Assembly: GCA_964592605.1 (NCBI GenBank)
Contig: CAZQFP010000001.1
Location: 6,755-70,754, forward strand
Length of the DNA: 64,000 bases
Origin: an uncultured Clostridia bacterium
GTDB lineage: Bacteria > Bacillota > Clostridia > Christensenellales > Borkfalkiaceae
Direction: 5' to 3'
The notes below the pieces were generated by a model. It searched no databases. It saw nothing but the letters and a program-made list of their open reading frames with translations, and had not been told where the DNA came from. The position numbers and the translations under genes were made by a program. This document shows, one piece after another, positions 4,171 through 32,134 of this stretch (the stretch's first letter is position 1; every line of letters begins with the position of its first letter).

Positions 4171-5526
4171 TTAGTTCTCCTTTGCGCCCTGACCGTACAG
4201 ATAGCACGCCACCATATGCGTGGGCGATACCTGCACCATCGCGGGGTAATCGCCCGCACATTTTTCGGTACATTTTTCGCATCTGTCGCGGAAATAACAG
4301 TAATTAGGCATATTTATAGGGTTGGGAACAAACCCGGGTATGCAGTAAAGTTTGTCCACTTCCTGATCTACGGTCGGTTTCGACTTCTGCAAACCTATAG
4401 TATACGGATGCATGGGATGGTCGTAAATATCTTCCGCCGTACCGGCTTCTATAACCTTGCCCGCATACATAACCACAACGTAGTCCGCCATTTCGGCAAC
4501 CACGCCCAAATCATGTGTAATGAGCATTATCGAGCCGTTTATTTTGCCCTTTATGTCGCGCAGAAGGTCGAGTATCTGCGCCTGTATGGTTACGTCGAGT
4601 GCGGTCGTAGGTTCGTCCGCAACTATAAGTTTAGGATTGCACAAAAGCGCTATCGCTATCATAACTCTTTGACGCATACCACCCGAAAGTTCGTGCGGGT
4701 ACTTTTTGTACACGCCTTCGGGATCGGCAATACCTACGAGCTTCAACATCTCTATACTGCGCGCCTTTACGTCCTTTTTGGAAATGCCTTCAATGTGAAG
4801 TCTACCTACTTCGTCAAGCTGGTTGCCGATAGTGAATACCGGATTGAGCGACGTCATCGGCTCCTGAAATATCATTGAAATTTCTCTGCCGCGAATAGTA
4901 CGCATTGCTTCGATAGGCATTTTGGCAATATCTACCACCTGCCTTTCCATTTCGTACATATTGCCGCCGAGAGCATTCTTTTTTATAATTTTTTTGCCTT
5001 TTGAATTCAGCTTAAAGCGCTCTTGCCCGTCTTCGCCGATTTCGGTTTCGTATACGGGAATTTTTCTGCCGCGTCCGTCCAGCTTGAACATATCGGCTTT
5101 AAAGCGTATAGAACCTTCTACAATCTGACCGCTGGGCGCCTGCACAAGTTGCATAAGTGAGAGCGAAGTTACGCTTTTGCCGCAACCGCTTTCGCCTACT
5201 ACGCCGACGGTAGAACCTGCCGGAATTGAAAAAGTTACGCCGTTAACAGCTTTTACCGTACCTGCGTCCGAAAAGAAATAGGTGTGCAGATTTTCAAACT
5301 CTACGATGTTGTTGTCATCCTTCATCCGGGTAACGTACTCTTCGGGTTTAACTCTGCGCTTTTTTCTCTTTTCGTAGTAGTTTATCGCCTTTGCGTTTTC
5401 TTTTGCGATTTTTCTAGATTCTTTGCGCGATATATAATGCTTTTTGCTTTCGTTTTTCTTATCGGCTACATTCTTCTTATTTTTGCGCAATATATTTTTT
5501 TTGCTGTCTTTTTTATTATCAGCCAT
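4171..5526 (-). CDS. Opp/Dpp-type ABC transporter ATP-binding protein (OppD-like) with Lys-rich N-terminal extension and internal insertion
   Basis: Walker A GESGCGKSV, signature LSGGMRQRVMIAIAL, Walker B IVADEPTTALD, H-loop ITHD. About 75 N-terminal residues are Lys/Asn/Arg-rich (MADNKKDSKKNILRKNKKNV...). A ~60-aa insert (FKADMFKLDGRGRK...MERQVVDIAKMP) lies between Walker A and the Q-loop. Confidence 0.85.
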   Translation of the reverse strand: MADNKKDSKKNILRKNKKNVADKKNESKKHYISRKESRKIAKENAKAINYYEKRKKRRVKPEEYVTRMKDDNNIVEFENLHTYFFSDAGTVKAVNGVTFSIPAGSTVGVVGESGCGKSVTSLSLMQLVQAPSGQIVEGSIRFKADMFKLDGRGRKIPVYETEIGEDGQERFKLNSKGKKIIKKNALGGNMYEMERQVVDIAKMPIEAMRTIRGREISMIFQEPMTSLNPVFTIGNQLDEVGRLHIEGISKKDVKARSIEMLKLVGIADPEGVYKKYPHELSGGMRQRVMIAIALLCNPKLIVADEPTTALDVTIQAQILDLLRDIKGKINGSIMLITHDLGVVAEMADYVVVMYAGKVIEAGTAEDIYDHPMHPYTIGLQKSKPTVDQEVDKLYCIPGFVPNPINMPNYCYFRDRCEKCTEKCAGDYPAMVQVSPTHMVACYLYGQGAKEN

Positions 5527-6663: not shown

Positions 6664-7665
6664 TTATGCAACCAGCTTTACTCTGGGGTCTACTACCGCA
6701 TACATTATGTCGGCAAGCAAAGTACCCAATACCGTCAGCACCGCAAGAAACATATTATACGCCATTGCAAGCGGTATATCGCCGACTTTCAGCGCCTGAT
6801 AAGCAATATTACCTATACCGGGAATATCGAACACTGTTTCGGTAATCATCGCGCCGCCGAAAAGCGTGGGAAGCGTAAACGAAAGCGTTGTGATAAGCGG
6901 AATTAAAGTATTCCTGAAAACGTGCTTGTATACAACCTTTCCGTTTGAAAGTCCCTTTGCGCGCGCCGTTCTTATGTAGTCGGCGTTGAGAACTTCAAGC
7001 GTGTTCGTACGCGTGTATCTCATAAGCGAGCCTATGCTCAGCAACACCATAACTATTATCGGCAACACAAGGTGCCACAGCATATCGCCAAATCTTTGGG
7101 CTCCGGTTGCGTCTACGGGCATATTCGACGAAACAAGTCCGCCTAAATCGAACCAACCCAAATCTACCGCAAACCACTTTATAAACAAGTTGCCTATAAA
7201 GAACGTGGGGAAAGCCATAAGCACCATGCAGACTACCGTTGTAAAATAGTCGAACTTGCCGTACTGATTGCACGCGCATTTTATTCCCAGCGGAATTGCT
7301 ATTATGAGTTCGAGTATGAGCGAGAAGAACGAAATGCCGAAAGACGTTCCCATATTTTTGGAGATAACGTTTTCTACCTTGTCGTCGAACTGGAACGAAG
7401 TTCCCATATCTCCCGACATGAAACTTGTAAGCCAGCTCCAATAGCCTTTTAAAATACCTAAAAAGCTATTGTCGTTCAAGCCGAACTGTGCGAGCATTTG
7501 ATCTAACACAGCCAGTTCTTCTTCGGTTGCATTGGGATGCTGATCGTAGAACCTACTTGTAAAGAAGTCCGTAGGCATCATGCGCAGCAAACAATACAAA
7601 AGTATTGAAACGCCGAAGAGAACAAGCAGTGCTAGCAAAACTCTCTTTAATAAATACTTTGCCAT
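6664..7665 (-). CDS. ABC transporter permease, OppB/DppB-like
   Basis: 333 aa. N-terminal MAKYLLKRVLLALLVLFGVSILLY and C-terminal AVVDPRVKL are typical of OppB/DppB permeases. Six predicted TM segments. Lies between the binding-protein gene and the OppC-like gene. Confidence 0.85.
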   Translation of the reverse strand: MAKYLLKRVLLALLVLFGVSILLYCLLRMMPTDFFTSRFYDQHPNATEEELAVLDQMLAQFGLNDNSFLGILKGYWSWLTSFMSGDMGTSFQFDDKVENVISKNMGTSFGISFFSLILELIIAIPLGIKCACNQYGKFDYFTTVVCMVLMAFPTFFIGNLFIKWFAVDLGWFDLGGLVSSNMPVDATGAQRFGDMLWHLVLPIIVMVLLSIGSLMRYTRTNTLEVLNADYIRTARAKGLSNGKVVYKHVFRNTLIPLITTLSFTLPTLFGGAMITETVFDIPGIGNIAYQALKVGDIPLAMAYNMFLAVLTVLGTLLADIMYAVVDPRVKLVA

Positions 7666-7694
7666 AAGTTGAAGTTTACTCCGTAAAAGTTACA

Positions 7695-10466
7695 TTAAAC
7701 GTAGCTTATTTGCCAAATTTTATCGAAAAGACCGATGTAGCTGTTAGGTTTTTGAACAAGCGTGTTTCTATCAATAACCTTATTGTTATAAACGCAAAGG
7801 TCCATTCTCTGATAGGTGGGCATTTCCACGTACAGCGACATTATCATATCAAGACATTCTGCATATTTGGGAATACGGTCGTCCTGTTCTGCATACGAAC
7901 GCGCTTCCATTATCTTATCGCTTAAGTTTTCAATAACGTTGCTTTCGTAGGGCCAGCTACCGGGAGCGCTTAAAATGTTTGTATAGTTCCAGTTCTTAAC
8001 GCTGGTTGCCTTACTGTCCTTGTGGTAAACCTGATACAGGTCGGGGTCGGTAGCCGCCGTCCACGCAGCCGCCCATATAGCAAGGTTACCGGTGTTCATC
8101 TTTTTGAGCGCCTGAATATCGGTTGCAACGGTAATTTTGAAACCGATTTCGTTTAACTCTCTTGCCGTATCAACAAACAGTTTGTATGTGGGGTGGTCCT
8201 TGGATTCGCCCGCGATTGTAAACGTGAAGTCAAGAGCCGAGCCCAAAGGCGCATTGTTCATGCCGTCCATAATTTTAGTCTTTTTATAGACGCCGTCTAC
8301 AAGTTCGTAGCCCGCCTGAGCTATAAGCGTTTTAACTTCTTCAAGGCTGGAGTCGTAAGCAACGCCCGAGTACTCGCCTACGGGTCTGGAGTTGCCGTCC
8401 TTAGGGTAAGCCCAGGAAGTGAGCGACATAGGTCTGTAAATTACCTGCGCAAGGTTTGCGCCTTCGCCGCCGTAATAGTCCTTAATGATATTTGCCGTGT
8501 TGAACGACTTCATTATAGCCTGTCTTACCTTATATTCGGGAACGTATTTGGGGTTGATGCCTATATAGCCGTAACCGCCAGTATAGTAATTTTCTTTGCT
8601 AAGGAAACTGCTGTTTTGAGTAACGGTTGCAATATTGGTCGTCGTTGCGTTGGGAGTACCGTAATCGATAGTTTTCGAAGTGAGCGCTTCCATAATTTTG
8701 TCGTCTGACATAACCTTGTAGTTGACGTACTTTATTTTAGCGTTCTGTATGCCGTTTTCCTTTCCGCCGCCAAGGGTATGGAAATTATCGTTACGCTTGA
8801 AATAAACCACGTTGTTTTCATAGAACGAATTACCGTCGGGATTGTCGCCGCCGCTTGCCGTGGTAGCCTTGTAAGCACCTGCGCCTACGGGCAACTTGTT
8901 CTTTTCGCTTGCCTTCAGAACGTCGTCGAAGAAGTTGCTGTCGCCCATTTCTATACCGAAATGAGTAATCTGCTCGCCGTCAAGCGCCTTGCCGCCGTTG
9001 TCGTTCAAGGCTTCCTGAACATAGTTTTTATGGTCCTTTTTAGCATAGTCTGTTGTGGAATAATAGTGCATGGGTGCAACCGTAAAGCCGAAGTTATATA
9101 CGGCTTTGGGGTCTATTCCGTTTACTTCTACCCTTAAAACGTAGTTGTTGTCAAGTTGTACGTTGCCCGCCGCCTTGTCTTTGAAGGTGCCGGAAGAAAG
9201 ATACGTCTTAATTCCTGAAACGGTGGGTACGGGAAGCGAGCCGCCCGCTTTGATTTCGTTGTAGTGTTCGGTACGCGCTTCGTTAGCAAACTTAGTTAAA
9301 ACTTCACTACCCGTTGCCCAATACAAAAGAATTTGGTCAAGAGTACTTTTATCGCTGTAGAAGTTGTATACGATATCAATACAAGCCGCTTTCTGAAGAG
9401 CAATTTTTGCGTCTGCGCGCGAAGGTTTTGTACCGGTAACGCTGTTGATATACTCGGTAATTTTGTCTTCAGTACAAGCCGCGTTAACCATATCTATATA
9501 GTCCTGGTGAACGGCAACGCCTTCCTGTCCGCCGTCTGCGTTGGGCTGCTGGGGATCGAGCGTGGTGTAGTAAAGTTCGCCGTCGTCCTTTTTGCCGTCG
9601 CCGTTTTTATCTTCAAACAACTGGTTCTTAACGGGGGGATCACTGTCTACCACCCAGCCTTCCTGTACCTTTACAACGCCTTCGTTGAAAAGATACGCCT
9701 GCCATGCTTCGGTAAATCTGTAAGAATCTTTATAGCTTTCGTACCAGCTGGTTTCGATAGCCGTCCAGTCGGTAGTGATTTCCTGTTTGAAAAGTTCGTA
9801 AGTTGTAGCAACGTCCGCCGCAATTTTTGCGTCTGCGGGCGTTGTTTCGGATTCGGGGCTGTCTTCAAGCCAGTCCAAAATAGCGTCAATTCTGTTCATT
9901 GCCGAAGCGGTGTATTCGGAATCGATATCTACCACGTCGTCGTCTTCAACGTTTCCGTCCTGCGCGCGGTAAGCCTTAAGTCCCACGATGTTCGTAGAAT
10001 AGAGCGTTGACGAACCTGAATACGAAGGGTCGAGATAAGTGTAAAGGTTGAAAAGTACGTCGTGAATGGTAAGATCGGTACCGTCGCTGAACTTTAAGCC
10101 GTTCTTAATTACGAACTCGTAAACGGTTTTGCCGTCTTCGTCGCCCTTAGTCGTTACGTTGCCGGCGGCGTCGTACATAGTTTCGTTGTAATACGCAACT
10201 GCGCAGGCTTCGTCGTAGCCGACCTTTATACCGCCCTTGTTATCTATGGAGAGCATAGTTATCTGCGTCATGGAAAGAATACTGCCGTCCGTTGCAGAAG
10301 TATAGAAGAACGGGTTGAAGTTGCCGTCAAGCGCCGCCGTGGAAAGCTGCAACTGACGCGTTTCGGTGTCTAACTTTGCACCGCCGCCGCACGCCGTTGC
10401 AAGCGTTGTGGAAAGCATTATCGCACCTAAACCAACACAGGCCAATCCTTTTAAAGTTTTTTTCAT
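7695..10466 (-). CDS. ABC transporter substrate-binding lipoprotein, family 5 (peptide/nickel type), unusually large (923 aa)
   Basis: Signal peptide with lipobox LATAC-GG. The family-5 motif region IKNGLKFSDGTDLTIHDVLFNLYTYLDP is present. Strong RBS GGAAGGAGA. First gene of the transporter block. Confidence 0.8.
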   Translation of the reverse strand: MKKTLKGLACVGLGAIMLSTTLATACGGGAKLDTETRQLQLSTAALDGNFNPFFYTSATDGSILSMTQITMLSIDNKGGIKVGYDEACAVAYYNETMYDAAGNVTTKGDEDGKTVYEFVIKNGLKFSDGTDLTIHDVLFNLYTYLDPSYSGSSTLYSTNIVGLKAYRAQDGNVEDDDVVDIDSEYTASAMNRIDAILDWLEDSPESETTPADAKIAADVATTYELFKQEITTDWTAIETSWYESYKDSYRFTEAWQAYLFNEGVVKVQEGWVVDSDPPVKNQLFEDKNGDGKKDDGELYYTTLDPQQPNADGGQEGVAVHQDYIDMVNAACTEDKITEYINSVTGTKPSRADAKIALQKAACIDIVYNFYSDKSTLDQILLYWATGSEVLTKFANEARTEHYNEIKAGGSLPVPTVSGIKTYLSSGTFKDKAAGNVQLDNNYVLRVEVNGIDPKAVYNFGFTVAPMHYYSTTDYAKKDHKNYVQEALNDNGGKALDGEQITHFGIEMGDSNFFDDVLKASEKNKLPVGAGAYKATTASGGDNPDGNSFYENNVVYFKRNDNFHTLGGGKENGIQNAKIKYVNYKVMSDDKIMEALTSKTIDYGTPNATTTNIATVTQNSSFLSKENYYTGGYGYIGINPKYVPEYKVRQAIMKSFNTANIIKDYYGGEGANLAQVIYRPMSLTSWAYPKDGNSRPVGEYSGVAYDSSLEEVKTLIAQAGYELVDGVYKKTKIMDGMNNAPLGSALDFTFTIAGESKDHPTYKLFVDTARELNEIGFKITVATDIQALKKMNTGNLAIWAAAWTAATDPDLYQVYHKDSKATSVKNWNYTNILSAPGSWPYESNVIENLSDKIMEARSYAEQDDRIPKYAECLDMIMSLYVEMPTYQRMDLCVYNNKVIDRNTLVQKPNSYIGLFDKIWQISYV

Positions 10467-24425: not shown

Positions 24426-24452
24426 GGCGCAAGCGTTTAAAGCGCTTGCGCC
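24426..24452. terminator. second (outer) hairpin closing array A; bidirectional terminator-like
   Basis: GGCGCAAGCG / CGCTTGCGCC 10-bp stem, followed by T-rich runs on both strands. It occupies the same position as hairpin 32091-32117 of array B but has an unrelated sequence. Confidence 0.6.
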
Positions 24453-24467
24453 TGATTTTAATTTTAA

Positions 24468-24739
24468 GCCCCCGAAAGGGGGCGACCTGCCCGCTTAGAA
24501 ATAAGCTAATGCGGGTAAAAGCGCGGCTATTCCACGCCGTTACCGCAAGGACGGTCCAGTTCGCCATGCATCAAAGCAAGGCAGGACAAAGTTCCCTTCA
24601 ACTCATAACAATTCTGTTACGTATTCCTTGAAATACGCAATACCGGTAAACCTGCTTTTTTCTTGTCATACTGAGCCTTGGCGAAGTATCTCGTGAGATT
24701 CTTCACTACGTTCAGAATGACATTCACAGGTGAGTTCAT
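24468..24739 (-). ncRNA. conserved structured RNA-like segment ('scaffold') terminating cassette array A; class not recognised
   Basis: Reverse complement of 31861-32072 with roughly 85% identity by eye outside indels. It shares the same series of hairpins, with compensatory or loop-restricted differences. It ends (minus strand) in GCCCCC-UUUC-GGGGGC plus a U/A-rich tract (24468-24483). It carries a 73-nt insertion in the first hairpin loop. Confidence 0.55.
24664..24722. repeat. MITE-like imperfect palindrome (TGTCATxCTGAG...GAAG-ATCTC / GAGATTCTTC...CAGAATGACA) inserted in scaffold A
   Basis: Left arm TGTCATACTGAGCCTTGGCGAAGTATCTC and right arm GAGATTCTTCACTACGTTCAGAATGACA are inverted copies. 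Absent from the otherwise collinear scaffold B. Same family as 42170-42248 and the half-copies listed below. Confidence 0.7.
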
Positions 24740-24911
24740 GCGCGGGCCGCACCGAATACCAACGGAAATCATCGCCCTGGCTAGTAGCACCAGACTGAGA
24801 AACTGCAAGTGTAAGGTTTGTATGTTCGTGGTAGCCGGAGCGCAGCGGTGCGTAAAAATAAAAAAACTTTGCCCTTTTGCACATTTTAACATATTAAGCC
24901 GTATGTTACAA
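24740..24911 (-). repeat. cassette unit A1 (promoter + leader box + invariant 18-mer + variable core + invariant 14-mer)
   Basis: Minus strand: TTGTAA (24911-24906), 17 nt, TAAAAT (24888-24883), AGGGCAAA box, T-run, GCACCGCTGCGCTCCGGC (24852-24834), 80-nt core (24833-24754), GGTGCGGCCCGCGC (24753-24740). Confidence 0.75.
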
Positions 24912-24926
24912 CTAAACCGAGTTGGA

Positions 24927-25096
24927 GCGCGGGCCGCACCGTGTACCAGCGGTCAGACCTACCATTGCCCATACCGCCATCGACGTAGAGAATGTAAGCA
25001 TTTCTCGTGTCGCCGTAGGCGCCGGAGCGCAGCGGTGCGAAAAATAAAACTTTTGCCCTATATGCGCATTTTAACATATTAAGTTGGTCGTTGCAA
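24927..25096 (-). repeat. cassette unit A2
   Basis: Minus strand: TTGCAA (25096-25091), 17 nt, TAAAAT (25073-25068), AGGGCAAA, T-run, 18-mer (25039-25021), 80-nt core (25020-24941), 14-mer (24940-24927). Confidence 0.75.
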
Positions 25097-25111: not shown

Positions 25112-25260
25112 GCGCGGGCCGCACCGATAGCCAATCAGTAACGTCGTGCCCGTAAAGATAGCCCGAAACACGGAAACTGAAACACTGCCGCGTGCCGCCA
25201 CGGTCGCCGGAGCGCAGCGGTGCGTAAAATAAAAAACTTTACCCTTCTACGAGTGTTTAA
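25112..25260 (-). repeat. cassette unit A3 (promoter-proximal unit, degenerate -10)
   Basis: Minus strand: TTAAAC instead of TAAAAT (25260-25255), AGGGTAAA, T-run, 18-mer (25224-25206), 80-nt core (25205-25126), 14-mer (25125-25112). Confidence 0.65.
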
Positions 25261-25448
25261 CCCAAATAGAATACACCTAAAAGCAATGTTTTTGCCTATC
25301 TCGGCGTTAAACTCGCTTGTCGTAGCACGCAGGCACGGCAAGAGGCGTTTTGGGTGTATTGACCGTGATTTTTCCGTAAAAATGTATTTTATATGGAGTT
25401 ATACACTCGTCCTAATTATAGCAAAGGGCAATTTTATTTGCAAACTTT

Positions 25449-31514: not shown

Positions 31515-31682
31515 TTGCAAGTTTTTTATTGCACCGTTAAAATGCGCTTATAGGGCAAAAGTTTTTTATTTTCGCACCGCTGCGCTCCTGCTCAGACTAC
31601 GGTACAAGCGTTGGCTTTACTCTGTCAGATGCCGGTCTCAGTTACACTTTGGTAGTCGATTGGCTAGCGGTGCGGCCCGCGC
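31515..31682 (+). repeat. cassette unit B1
   Basis: TTGCAA (31515-31520), 17 nt, TAAAAT (31538-31543), AGGGCAAA, T-run, GCACCGCTGCGCTCCTGC (31574-31591, one G>T), 77-nt core (31592-31668), GGTGCGGCCCGCGC (31669-31682). The promoter spacer contains GTTTTTTATTGCACCG, a vestige of a further unit. Confidence 0.75.
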
Positions 31683-31692
31683 TTCAACTTAA

Positions 31693-31860
31693 TTGCTTTT
31701 TTATATCTCACATGCTAAAATGTGCGAAAGGGCAAACGTTTTTATTTTGCACCGCTGCGCTCCGGCTACTTTTACTATGCTGGCAATGCTTACAACCTTA
31801 CGGTAGGTGGTAGCCTTAACACTGACATCACTGCTTATTGGTTCTCGGTGCGGCCCGCGC
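31693..31860 (+). repeat. cassette unit B2
   Basis: TTGCTT (31693-31698), 17 nt, TAAAAT (31716-31721), AGGGCAAA, T-run, 18-mer (31749-31766), 80-nt core (31767-31846), 14-mer (31847-31860). Confidence 0.75.
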
Positions 31861-32072
31861 ATGAACTCACCTGCAAAAACAGGTTTACCCGTATTGCGTA
31901 TTTCAAGGAATACGTAACAGAAACGTTACGAGTTGAAGGGAACTTTGTCCTGCCTTGCAAAGTTATTGCATGGCGAACTTGACCGTCCTTGCGGTAACGG
32001 CGCAAAACAAGTTGCACTTTTATTCGCATTAGCTTTTACGTAAAGCGGGCAGGTCGCCCCCCTTACGGGGGC
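31861..32072 (+). ncRNA. conserved structured RNA-like segment ('scaffold') terminating cassette array B; class not recognised
   Basis: Hairpins: ACCTG-CAAAAA-CAGGT; CGTATT-TCAAGG-AATACG; GTAAC-AGAAAC-GTTAC; GCCTTGC-loop-GCATGGC; GCAA-AACAAG-TTGC; GCTTT-TACGT-AAAGC. Possible long-range pairing TCCTGCC/GGCAGG. Terminator GCCCCC(C)-TTAC-GGGGGC plus TTAAATTT (32056-32080). Confidence 0.55.
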
Positions 32073-32090
32073 TTAAATTTAAAAATAAAA

Positions 32091-32117
32091 GCGGCGTGTG
32101 CTTAAAGCTCACGCCGC
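32091..32117. terminator. second (outer) hairpin closing array B; also the terminator of the convergent gene 32135..33004
   Basis: GCGGCGTG / CACGCCGC stem. TTTGTT follows on the plus strand and TTTTATTTTT on the minus strand. It lies 18 nt from the stop of the minus-strand membrane-protein gene. Confidence 0.7.
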
Positions 32118-32134
32118 TTTGTTCATTTAAAAAA

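Follow-up and report, generated by a model that had tools for sequence, protein, structure and literature searches.

Diversity-generating retroelements (DGRs) are understood as one-way systems in which an invariant template (TR) rewrites a protein gene, and their repeats usually sit at the C-terminus of the encoded protein. In Bordetella phage BPP-1, cryo-EM of the DGR RNA indicates that the template needs a short upstream segment together with a structured downstream RNA, which envelops RT-Avd and primes cDNA synthesis (bioRxiv 10.1101/2023.10.23.563531). The recipients of surveyed DGRs sit in the coding sequence of target proteins (PMC8144416). The literature searched contains no description of promoter-bearing, scaffold-sharing, non-coding DGR cassettes or of non-coding recipients, and the 2017 DGR survey mentions neither promoters nor multi-TR arrays.

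The stretch of DNA analysed here (the window, 64 kb in length) comes from an assembly of 1.33 Mb, 83% complete, and contains five repeat units in two arrays, A1-A3 in array A and B1-B2 in array B. These units are non-coding DGR modules that probably possess working sigma-A promoters of their own and would be transcribed into nested, co-terminal RNAs; cassette cores of this kind also act as recipients. The initial annotation of the window missed both the DGR membership of the units and the adenine-mutagenic retrohoming into their cores. As in BPP-1 (avd 3' end, TR, Sp; bRT-Avd), the repeat is preceded by a short segment and followed by a structured RNA, mutagenesis is adenine-specific, and a hairpin comes after the GC-rich element at the 3' end of the repeat. 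Unlike BPP-1, many units share one scaffold, each unit has a promoter, the arrays are located far from the reverse transcriptase (RT), and most units are adenine-poor, non-coding recipients. No counterparts of the BPP-1 priming duplex or stop duplex were identified here. One candidate priming duplex, between GCGGGC of the scaffold and GCCCGC of the 3' box, was rejected because the scaffold segment is part of a long-range closing helix and the pairing shows no co-variation in relatives.

Canonical variable repeats (VRs), such as those of Treponema TvpA, Legionella LdtA and others, resemble the recipients described below in differing from the TR only at TR adenines and in possessing a GC-rich 3' box with a downstream hairpin. 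Unlike them, the cassettes have no start codon, are closed by stops on both sides and carry template-type flanks. The multi-template DGRs of gut Christensenellales (L039, L048, L051, L062 and others) belong to the same RT family, at 57-69% identity, and have in common with the present system the 5' AGGGC hairpin, the repeat boxes, the GAGTTGAAGGG scaffold, the per-unit promoter and a mixture of adenine-rich and adenine-poor units. Most of these relatives have a scaffold and a terminator for each unit, unlike the window arrays. New here are the genome-wide and cross-genome evidence for the promoters, the corrected promoter of A3, and the rewriting of cassette cores from master TRs.

The DGR locus and the arrays of the window

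The sole RT of the genome is encoded on contig C3, a different contig from that of the window, at a locus that comprises RT, Avd, six tandem adenine-rich TRs, a segment homologous to the scaffold and a surface protein of 4270 amino acids. The combination of an IGxxxSQ motif with YMDD is diagnostic of DGR-type RTs; the C3 RT possesses PIGNQTSQ and YMDD and matches Pfam RVT_1, and it passes no NCBIfam model. The Avd beside it scores 43.9 bits against Pfam bAvd (cut-off 40), and its best NCBIfam match is DivGenRetAVD, yet under the cut-off of that model. The six TRs contain 25-31 A per 80-nt core. The surface protein holds one repeat copy, which is the only coding VR of the genome and differs from TR5 over the 80-nt core at 16 of 27 A sites and at none of the 53 other sites. 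RT, Avd and an adenine-specific TR/VR pair make this locus a DGR. The coding VR (about 4780-4890 on the minus strand of L014, which corresponds to C3:27000-42000) lies some 450 residues into the 4270-aa protein and not at its C-terminus.

All five units of the window follow one plan, consisting of a promoter-like box, a AGGGCAAA box with a U-run, GCACCG, CTGCGCTCCGGC, a core of about 80 nt and the 3' box CGGTGCGGCCCGCGC. The last unit of each array leads into a conserved segment of about 220 nt and then a terminator. Within the 64 kb, the 5' and 3' boxes are confined to A1-A3, B1 and B2; across the genome, the 3' box has 43 copies at about 17 loci.

Array A lies on the minus strand and begins with a promoter at 25443-25415 (TTGCAA-17-TATAAT with an upstream TG), which matches in form the first-unit promoters of other arrays. 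It is separated from the AGGGT box of A3 by an element of about 150 nt (25249-25410) with 13-nt inverted ends at 25249-25261 and 25398-25410 that are 92% complementary; the same leader also stands ahead of the first array unit on contig C7. Cassette A3 (25112-25248), complete from 5' box, U-run, GCACCG and CTGCGCTCCGGC through core to CGGTGCGGCCCGCGC, is non-coding and has a cognate in none of the six TRs. The A2 promoter (25068-25096, TTGCAA-17-TAAAAT with TG, predicted start at about 25061) precedes the non-coding cassette A2 (24927-25061), and the A1 promoter (24883-24911, TTGTAA-17-TAAAAT with TG, predicted start at about 24876) precedes A1 (24740-24876), the terminal unit. Scaffold A (24453-24739), a predicted structured RNA whose homologue at the RT locus follows TR6, contains a small palindromic insertion inside its first hairpin loop (24655-24727) and is followed by an intrinsic terminator detected by the terminator scan (24426-24452).

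Array B lies on the plus strand. The B1 promoter (31515-31543, TTGCAA-17-TAAAAT, predicted start at about 31550) holds in its spacer GTTTTTTATTGCACCG (31521-31536), in which the 5' segment of a unit recurs in truncated form, as the initial annotation had recognized in describing it as the relic of one more unit. Cassette B1 (31550-31682) is non-coding and without a cognate TR. The B2 promoter (31693-31721, TTGCTT-17-TAAAAT with TG, predicted start at about 31728) is followed by cassette B2 (31728-31860), whose core is an adenine-specific derivative of master TR3. Scaffold B (31861-32089), likewise a predicted structured RNA, shows compensatory changes relative to other copies; hairpins occur at 32056-32072 and 32090-32118, and the terminator at 32090-32128 consists of a 9-bp GC-rich stem and a T-run.

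From these coordinates, the RNAs of array B would start at about 31550 and 31728 and stop at about 32128 on the plus strand, giving sizes of about 0.58 and 0.40 kb, and those of array A would start at about 25408, 25061 and 24876 and stop at about 24420 on the minus strand, giving 0.99, 0.64 and 0.46 kb. The predicted ladder thus spans about 0.4-1.0 kb and replaces the earlier estimate of 0.35-0.75 kb.

In total, 36 non-coding cassettes, including the five of the window, are distributed over 16 arrays of 2-5 units, each of which closes with a scaffold. In the genomes of two relatives that were searched whole (G041 and G042), all modules are found at the RT locus and adjoin the RT; by this comparison, dispersal over 16 loci appears special to the genome of the window.

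Promoters and RNA elements of the cassettes

The initial annotation had read TTG(C/T)(A/T)(A/T), a 17-nt spacer and TAAAAT ahead of A1, A2, B1 and B2, and the pattern TTGHWW-N17-TAAAAT has exactly these 4 matches in the 64 kb, compared with 0.55 expected; none of 100 shuffles reached 4. An independent consensus scan picks up A1, A2 and B1 together with the site at 25443-25415(-), which is better than any of the four, and the -35 box of B2, TTGCTT, matches the consensus at 3 of 6 positions and so fails the stricter filter of that scan. An extended -10 TG is present in the A1, A2 and B2 promoters. A3 had been assigned a degenerate TTAAAC; by position weight matrix (PWM) it has no local promoter (score 2.7), and this unit is served instead by the displaced consensus promoter at 25443-25415, with the element of about 150 nt in between.

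The 95 nt ahead of each unit were scanned in an unbiased manner with the PWM, using the 95th percentile of the genome (8.9) as threshold. This value is exceeded by 33 of the 36 cassettes, and the spacer is 17 nt in all 33. The two clear exceptions, A3 and C7+26464, both have an inserted leader, a small inverted-repeat element having displaced the consensus promoter about 150 nt upstream; C36+6521 falls just under the threshold (8.5 against 8.9). By pattern, TT[G/T]nnn-17-TAnnnT is found at a constant relative position in 34 of the 36 cassettes, counts that are not independent because the cassettes are paralogues. Three unrelated spacer classes, and related genomes as well, preserve TTG, TG and TAnnnT. 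The array-head class reads TTGCAA-17-TA(C/G/T)nAT, internal type 1 reads AGTTGCAAC...TTAATATGTTAAAAT, and internal type 2 reads TTGCTT-17-TATACT. Information peaks at TTGC, TG and TAnAAT, and the pairwise identity among the 16 type-1 internal promoters is 100% for TTG, 98% for the -10 box and 96% for TG, compared with 68-78% for the spacer. These sequences have the form of sigma-A promoters, with a -35 box TTGnnn, a spacer of 17 +/- 1 nt, a -10 box TAnnnT and an optional TG. The earlier proposal that every cassette has its own promoter appears, judged by sequence, to hold for 34 of the 36 paralogous cassettes, across the three spacer classes and for the modules of relatives.

The -10 box always ends 5-9 nt ahead of the AGGGC box, in agreement with the earlier placement of the predicted RNA 5' end at this box. 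On contigs C39 and C70, the 3' box of one unit is separated from the next promoter by a small inserted element, and the spacing from that promoter to the next unit is intact. The promoter therefore belongs to the downstream unit, as these insertions part it from the upstream unit and not from the AGGGC box. In six array heads (C15, C27, C32, C46, C58 and C59), the -10 box lies in the loop of an 11-13-bp hairpin that is followed by a U-run; these hairpins have energies of -15 to -25 kcal/mol and show compensatory changes between arrays. Such a structure would be a combined terminator and promoter, which would halt transcription arriving from upstream and let the RNA start afresh at the AGGGC box.

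The six master TRs on C3 are without per-unit promoters (PWM scores 2.3-6.8), and the spacers between them (about 6960-8070 on the minus strand of L014) carry a conserved hairpin, AAAGCG...CGCTTT, in place of a promoter. TRs 1, 3, 4 and 5, which are internal and do not adjoin the scaffold, have clean cognates, so a per-unit promoter is not needed for template service.

At the RNA level, the AGGGC box pairs across a 4-nt loop with the GYYUU behind it (the first U's), giving a small 5' hairpin that co-varies among paralogues and relatives, and the scaffold helices show compensatory changes between copies. Terminators are found in both window arrays after the scaffolds only and not between units; the terminator scan of the window here agrees with the first reading, and the CAACT/AGTTG hairpin that it reported in array A is present. 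No Rfam family passed its gathering threshold, and the matches at E<1 amounted to terminator-like noise. A small-ORF reading of the units was rejected, since the ATG within TAAAATG changes frame from unit to unit and neither a start codon nor a ribosome-binding site is conserved. Scaffold hairpin loops have repeatedly received insertions of a small palindromic element (core GTCATTCTGAAC...GAAGAATC), which is found at 24655-24727 in the window and on contigs C7, C32, C36, C39 and C70; on C39 and C70, it has entered the stretch that separates one unit from the following promoter. Stems and the spacing from promoter to unit are never disrupted by it.

A related RT, with 32-69% identity (most 51-69%), is encoded at 58 loci, the majority from Christensenellales MAGs of mouse and other animal guts, and many of these loci contain multiple units after RT-Avd. 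In L039, L048, L052, L057 and L062, each module possesses TTGnnA-17/18-TATAAT, TACAAT or TATAGT, followed after 6-9 nt by the 5' hairpin, the unit and the scaffold; in L039 and L048, the last scaffold helix with its U-run is visibly the terminator, and the next -35 box follows directly. L051 contains four adenine-rich TRs, each with a promoter (TTGCAA or TTGCTA-17-TATAAT, TATTAT or TAATAT), and one scaffold after the last TR. It thus appears to have the array design of the window with true templates in place of cassettes. L029, L036, L037 and L045, among others, have no per-unit promoters, as in the C3 array.

Cassette cores as recipients of master TRs

In the repeat frame, each of the 36 cassettes is enclosed by stop codons, at 100-225 nt on the upstream and 15-156 nt on the downstream side, and a start codon is not conserved; the cassettes are therefore untranslated. 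Their cores contain 11-24 A per 80 nt, against 25-31 in the six TRs, and are not adenine-rich as expected of a TR; a VR within a coding gene is found in the 4270-aa C3 protein only and in none of the 36. The cassettes are part of the DGR system and are neither canonical VRs nor canonical TRs; judged by the flanks they are template-type, judged by the cores variable-type. Adenine-poor and adenine-rich modules are also mixed beside the RT in L036, L039, L048 and L052.

The mismatches between seven cassettes and a master TR are concentrated at TR adenines over the 80-nt core (Fisher p 1e-3 to 5e-10). Changes are confined to adenines in C7+26464, compared with TR1 (16 of 29 A sites, 0 of 51 others), and in C23+1262, compared with TR4 (13/25 and 0/55). 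B2 of the window differs from TR3 at 13 of 31 A sites and 3 of 49 other sites. The remaining four are C46-6553 (TR1; 16/29 and 3/51), C59-762 (TR1; 12/29 and 5/51), C23+1456 (TR5; 16/27 and 6/53) and C70+1450 (TR2; 16/25 and 9/55). A weaker eighth case outside the Fisher set, C10-13436, shows 12 A-site and 12 other mismatches to TR4. The substitution spectrum consists of 118 A>N against 26 other changes, and the reverse direction, with the cassette as template, fails, as it leaves 13-16 mismatches at non-A positions of the cassette. At least 8 of the 36 cassettes, B2 included, are by this sequence evidence recipients, with a core that appears to be an A-to-any-base copy of a master TR. Their flanks remain cassette-type and the core alone is replaced, which argues for retrohoming into the cassettes in place. 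The cassettes C10 (13436) and C46 (6553), at different loci, carry at the 5' end of the core the same diversified stretch of 14 nt, which none of the TRs contains; beyond it, the C10 core matches TR4, a pattern compatible with an overwriting that proceeded from the 3' end and was only partial.

No current TR matches about 27 of the 36 cassettes, including A1-A3 and B1. Mosaics of two TRs do not account for them, and templating of cassettes by one another was rejected, as in no ordered pair are the mismatches confined to A; the only very close pair consists of nearly identical duplicates in a single C10 array. A contig from a strain with about 94-95% identity extends from the flanking gene through most of the B1 core (to 31652), so the turnover of B1 is not rapid. 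Related sequence was found in only three gut metagenomes, all of them DNA, and in no RNA run; the DNA contigs represent one related strain and many paralogous fragments. Of two metagenome pattern scans, the first was empty and the second returned only unrelated single GC-rich matches. Orthologous arrays were not recovered from other assemblies, in which contigs with the flanking proteins end at the arrays, and blastn of same-genus genomes found the arrays in none of the 24 species searched.

Proposed working and alternative explanations

In the proposed working, a sigma-A promoter at the head of each module would drive an RNA that starts at the 5' hairpin, traverses the repeat core, continues across whatever modules lie downstream, enters the shared scaffold of about 220 nt and ends at the terminator behind it, so that each array would yield nested, co-terminal RNAs. 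The scaffold would be the counterpart of the Bordetella phage DGR spacer RNA, which wraps RT-Avd and primes cDNA, and cDNA from the master TRs would overwrite the cassette cores in place. A promoter that stands ahead of the 5' segment of a unit and reads into the scaffold fits the need of the BPP-1 template for an upstream segment and a downstream RNA. Promoter function and nested, co-terminal RNAs of about 0.4-1.0 kb are well supported by the comparisons above; the cassettes would accordingly be transcribed, with the 5' ends predicted here, and their RNAs may bind RT-Avd.

The boxes might alternatively act at the DNA level, in the recognition of retrohoming targets through a hairpin or cruciform and AT-rich DNA after the GC-rich 3' box, and not in transcription. 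DGR targets require a hairpin downstream of the variable repeat. In the present arrays, each internal unit has a CAACT/AGTTG hairpin after its 3' box, with whose 3' arm the -35 box overlaps. This explanation is nevertheless highly improbable, as the distance of the boxes is fixed to the downstream and not the upstream unit (the C39 and C70 insertions), the boxes are present at first units, which have no upstream unit, terminal units carry the hairpin without the boxes, and the sigma-A pattern with 17-nt spacing is exact in three spacer sequences and in relatives. That the functional transcripts are antisense, from TTGCCC-17/18-TATTAA, deserves the least credence of all: the reverse complement of the AGGGCAA box does resemble a -35 box, TTGCCC, with TATTAA at about the right distance, but TATTAA lacks the final T, the terminators and the promoter-to-terminator modules of relatives share the orientation of the cassettes, and the G-U pairs of the 5' hairpin and scaffold helices, which are possible on the cassette-sense strand only, would turn into C-A mismatches.

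A different view holds that the cassettes are decaying template modules hit by the element's own cDNA, their promoters and scaffolds being leftovers and any transcripts without a role. In favour of decay, the majority of cores are poor in adenine and have no counterpart among the current TRs, no coding repeat of relatives is explained by an adenine-poor cassette, the B1 promoter was made from a truncated unit, and small mobile elements have inserted in several arrays. On the other side, the key promoter positions are far better conserved than the spacer between them, compensatory changes are found in the scaffold helices and array-head hairpins, insertions are tolerated just in loops or between modules, and 16 arrays are retained in a genome of about 1.3-1.6 Mb. 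That promoters, head hairpins and scaffold helices are under selection speaks against the cassettes being junk, and decay is considered unlikely.

For modules that are transcribed and rewritten as proposed, service of their RNAs as extra templates is the leading guess and a tentative one. More doubtful is a two-tier DGR, in which the master adenine-rich TRs would keep rewriting a dispersed library of individually transcribed, scaffold-bearing cassettes whose RNAs form a second evolvable template layer, or diversified RNA or cDNA products; such an element would diversify its own templates besides a protein gene. It is unusual that one DGR also rewrites dozens of untranslated cassettes that keep promoters and a putatively RT-binding RNA. 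Either the templates themselves may be diversified and stored, or retrohoming may need just short flanking homology and a hairpin, which would make paralogous template modules unavoidable sinks. Both possibilities bear on the confinement of DGR targeting, on template choice in multi-template DGRs and on how DGRs could serve as programmable mutators. The per-unit promoters provide a simple experimental handle, with a predicted 5' end and size for each cassette RNA.

The coding repeats of the relatives bear directly on the template role. Across 22 related loci, the best source for the coding repeat is in every case an adenine-rich TR, at varying array positions, and in no case an adenine-poor cassette, so a template role for adenine-poor cassettes receives no support from these loci and a simple one is doubtful. 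One coding repeat, at 11625-11720 of L048, is mosaic-like, its 5' half resembling the TR at 8845 and its 3' half the TR at 8157.
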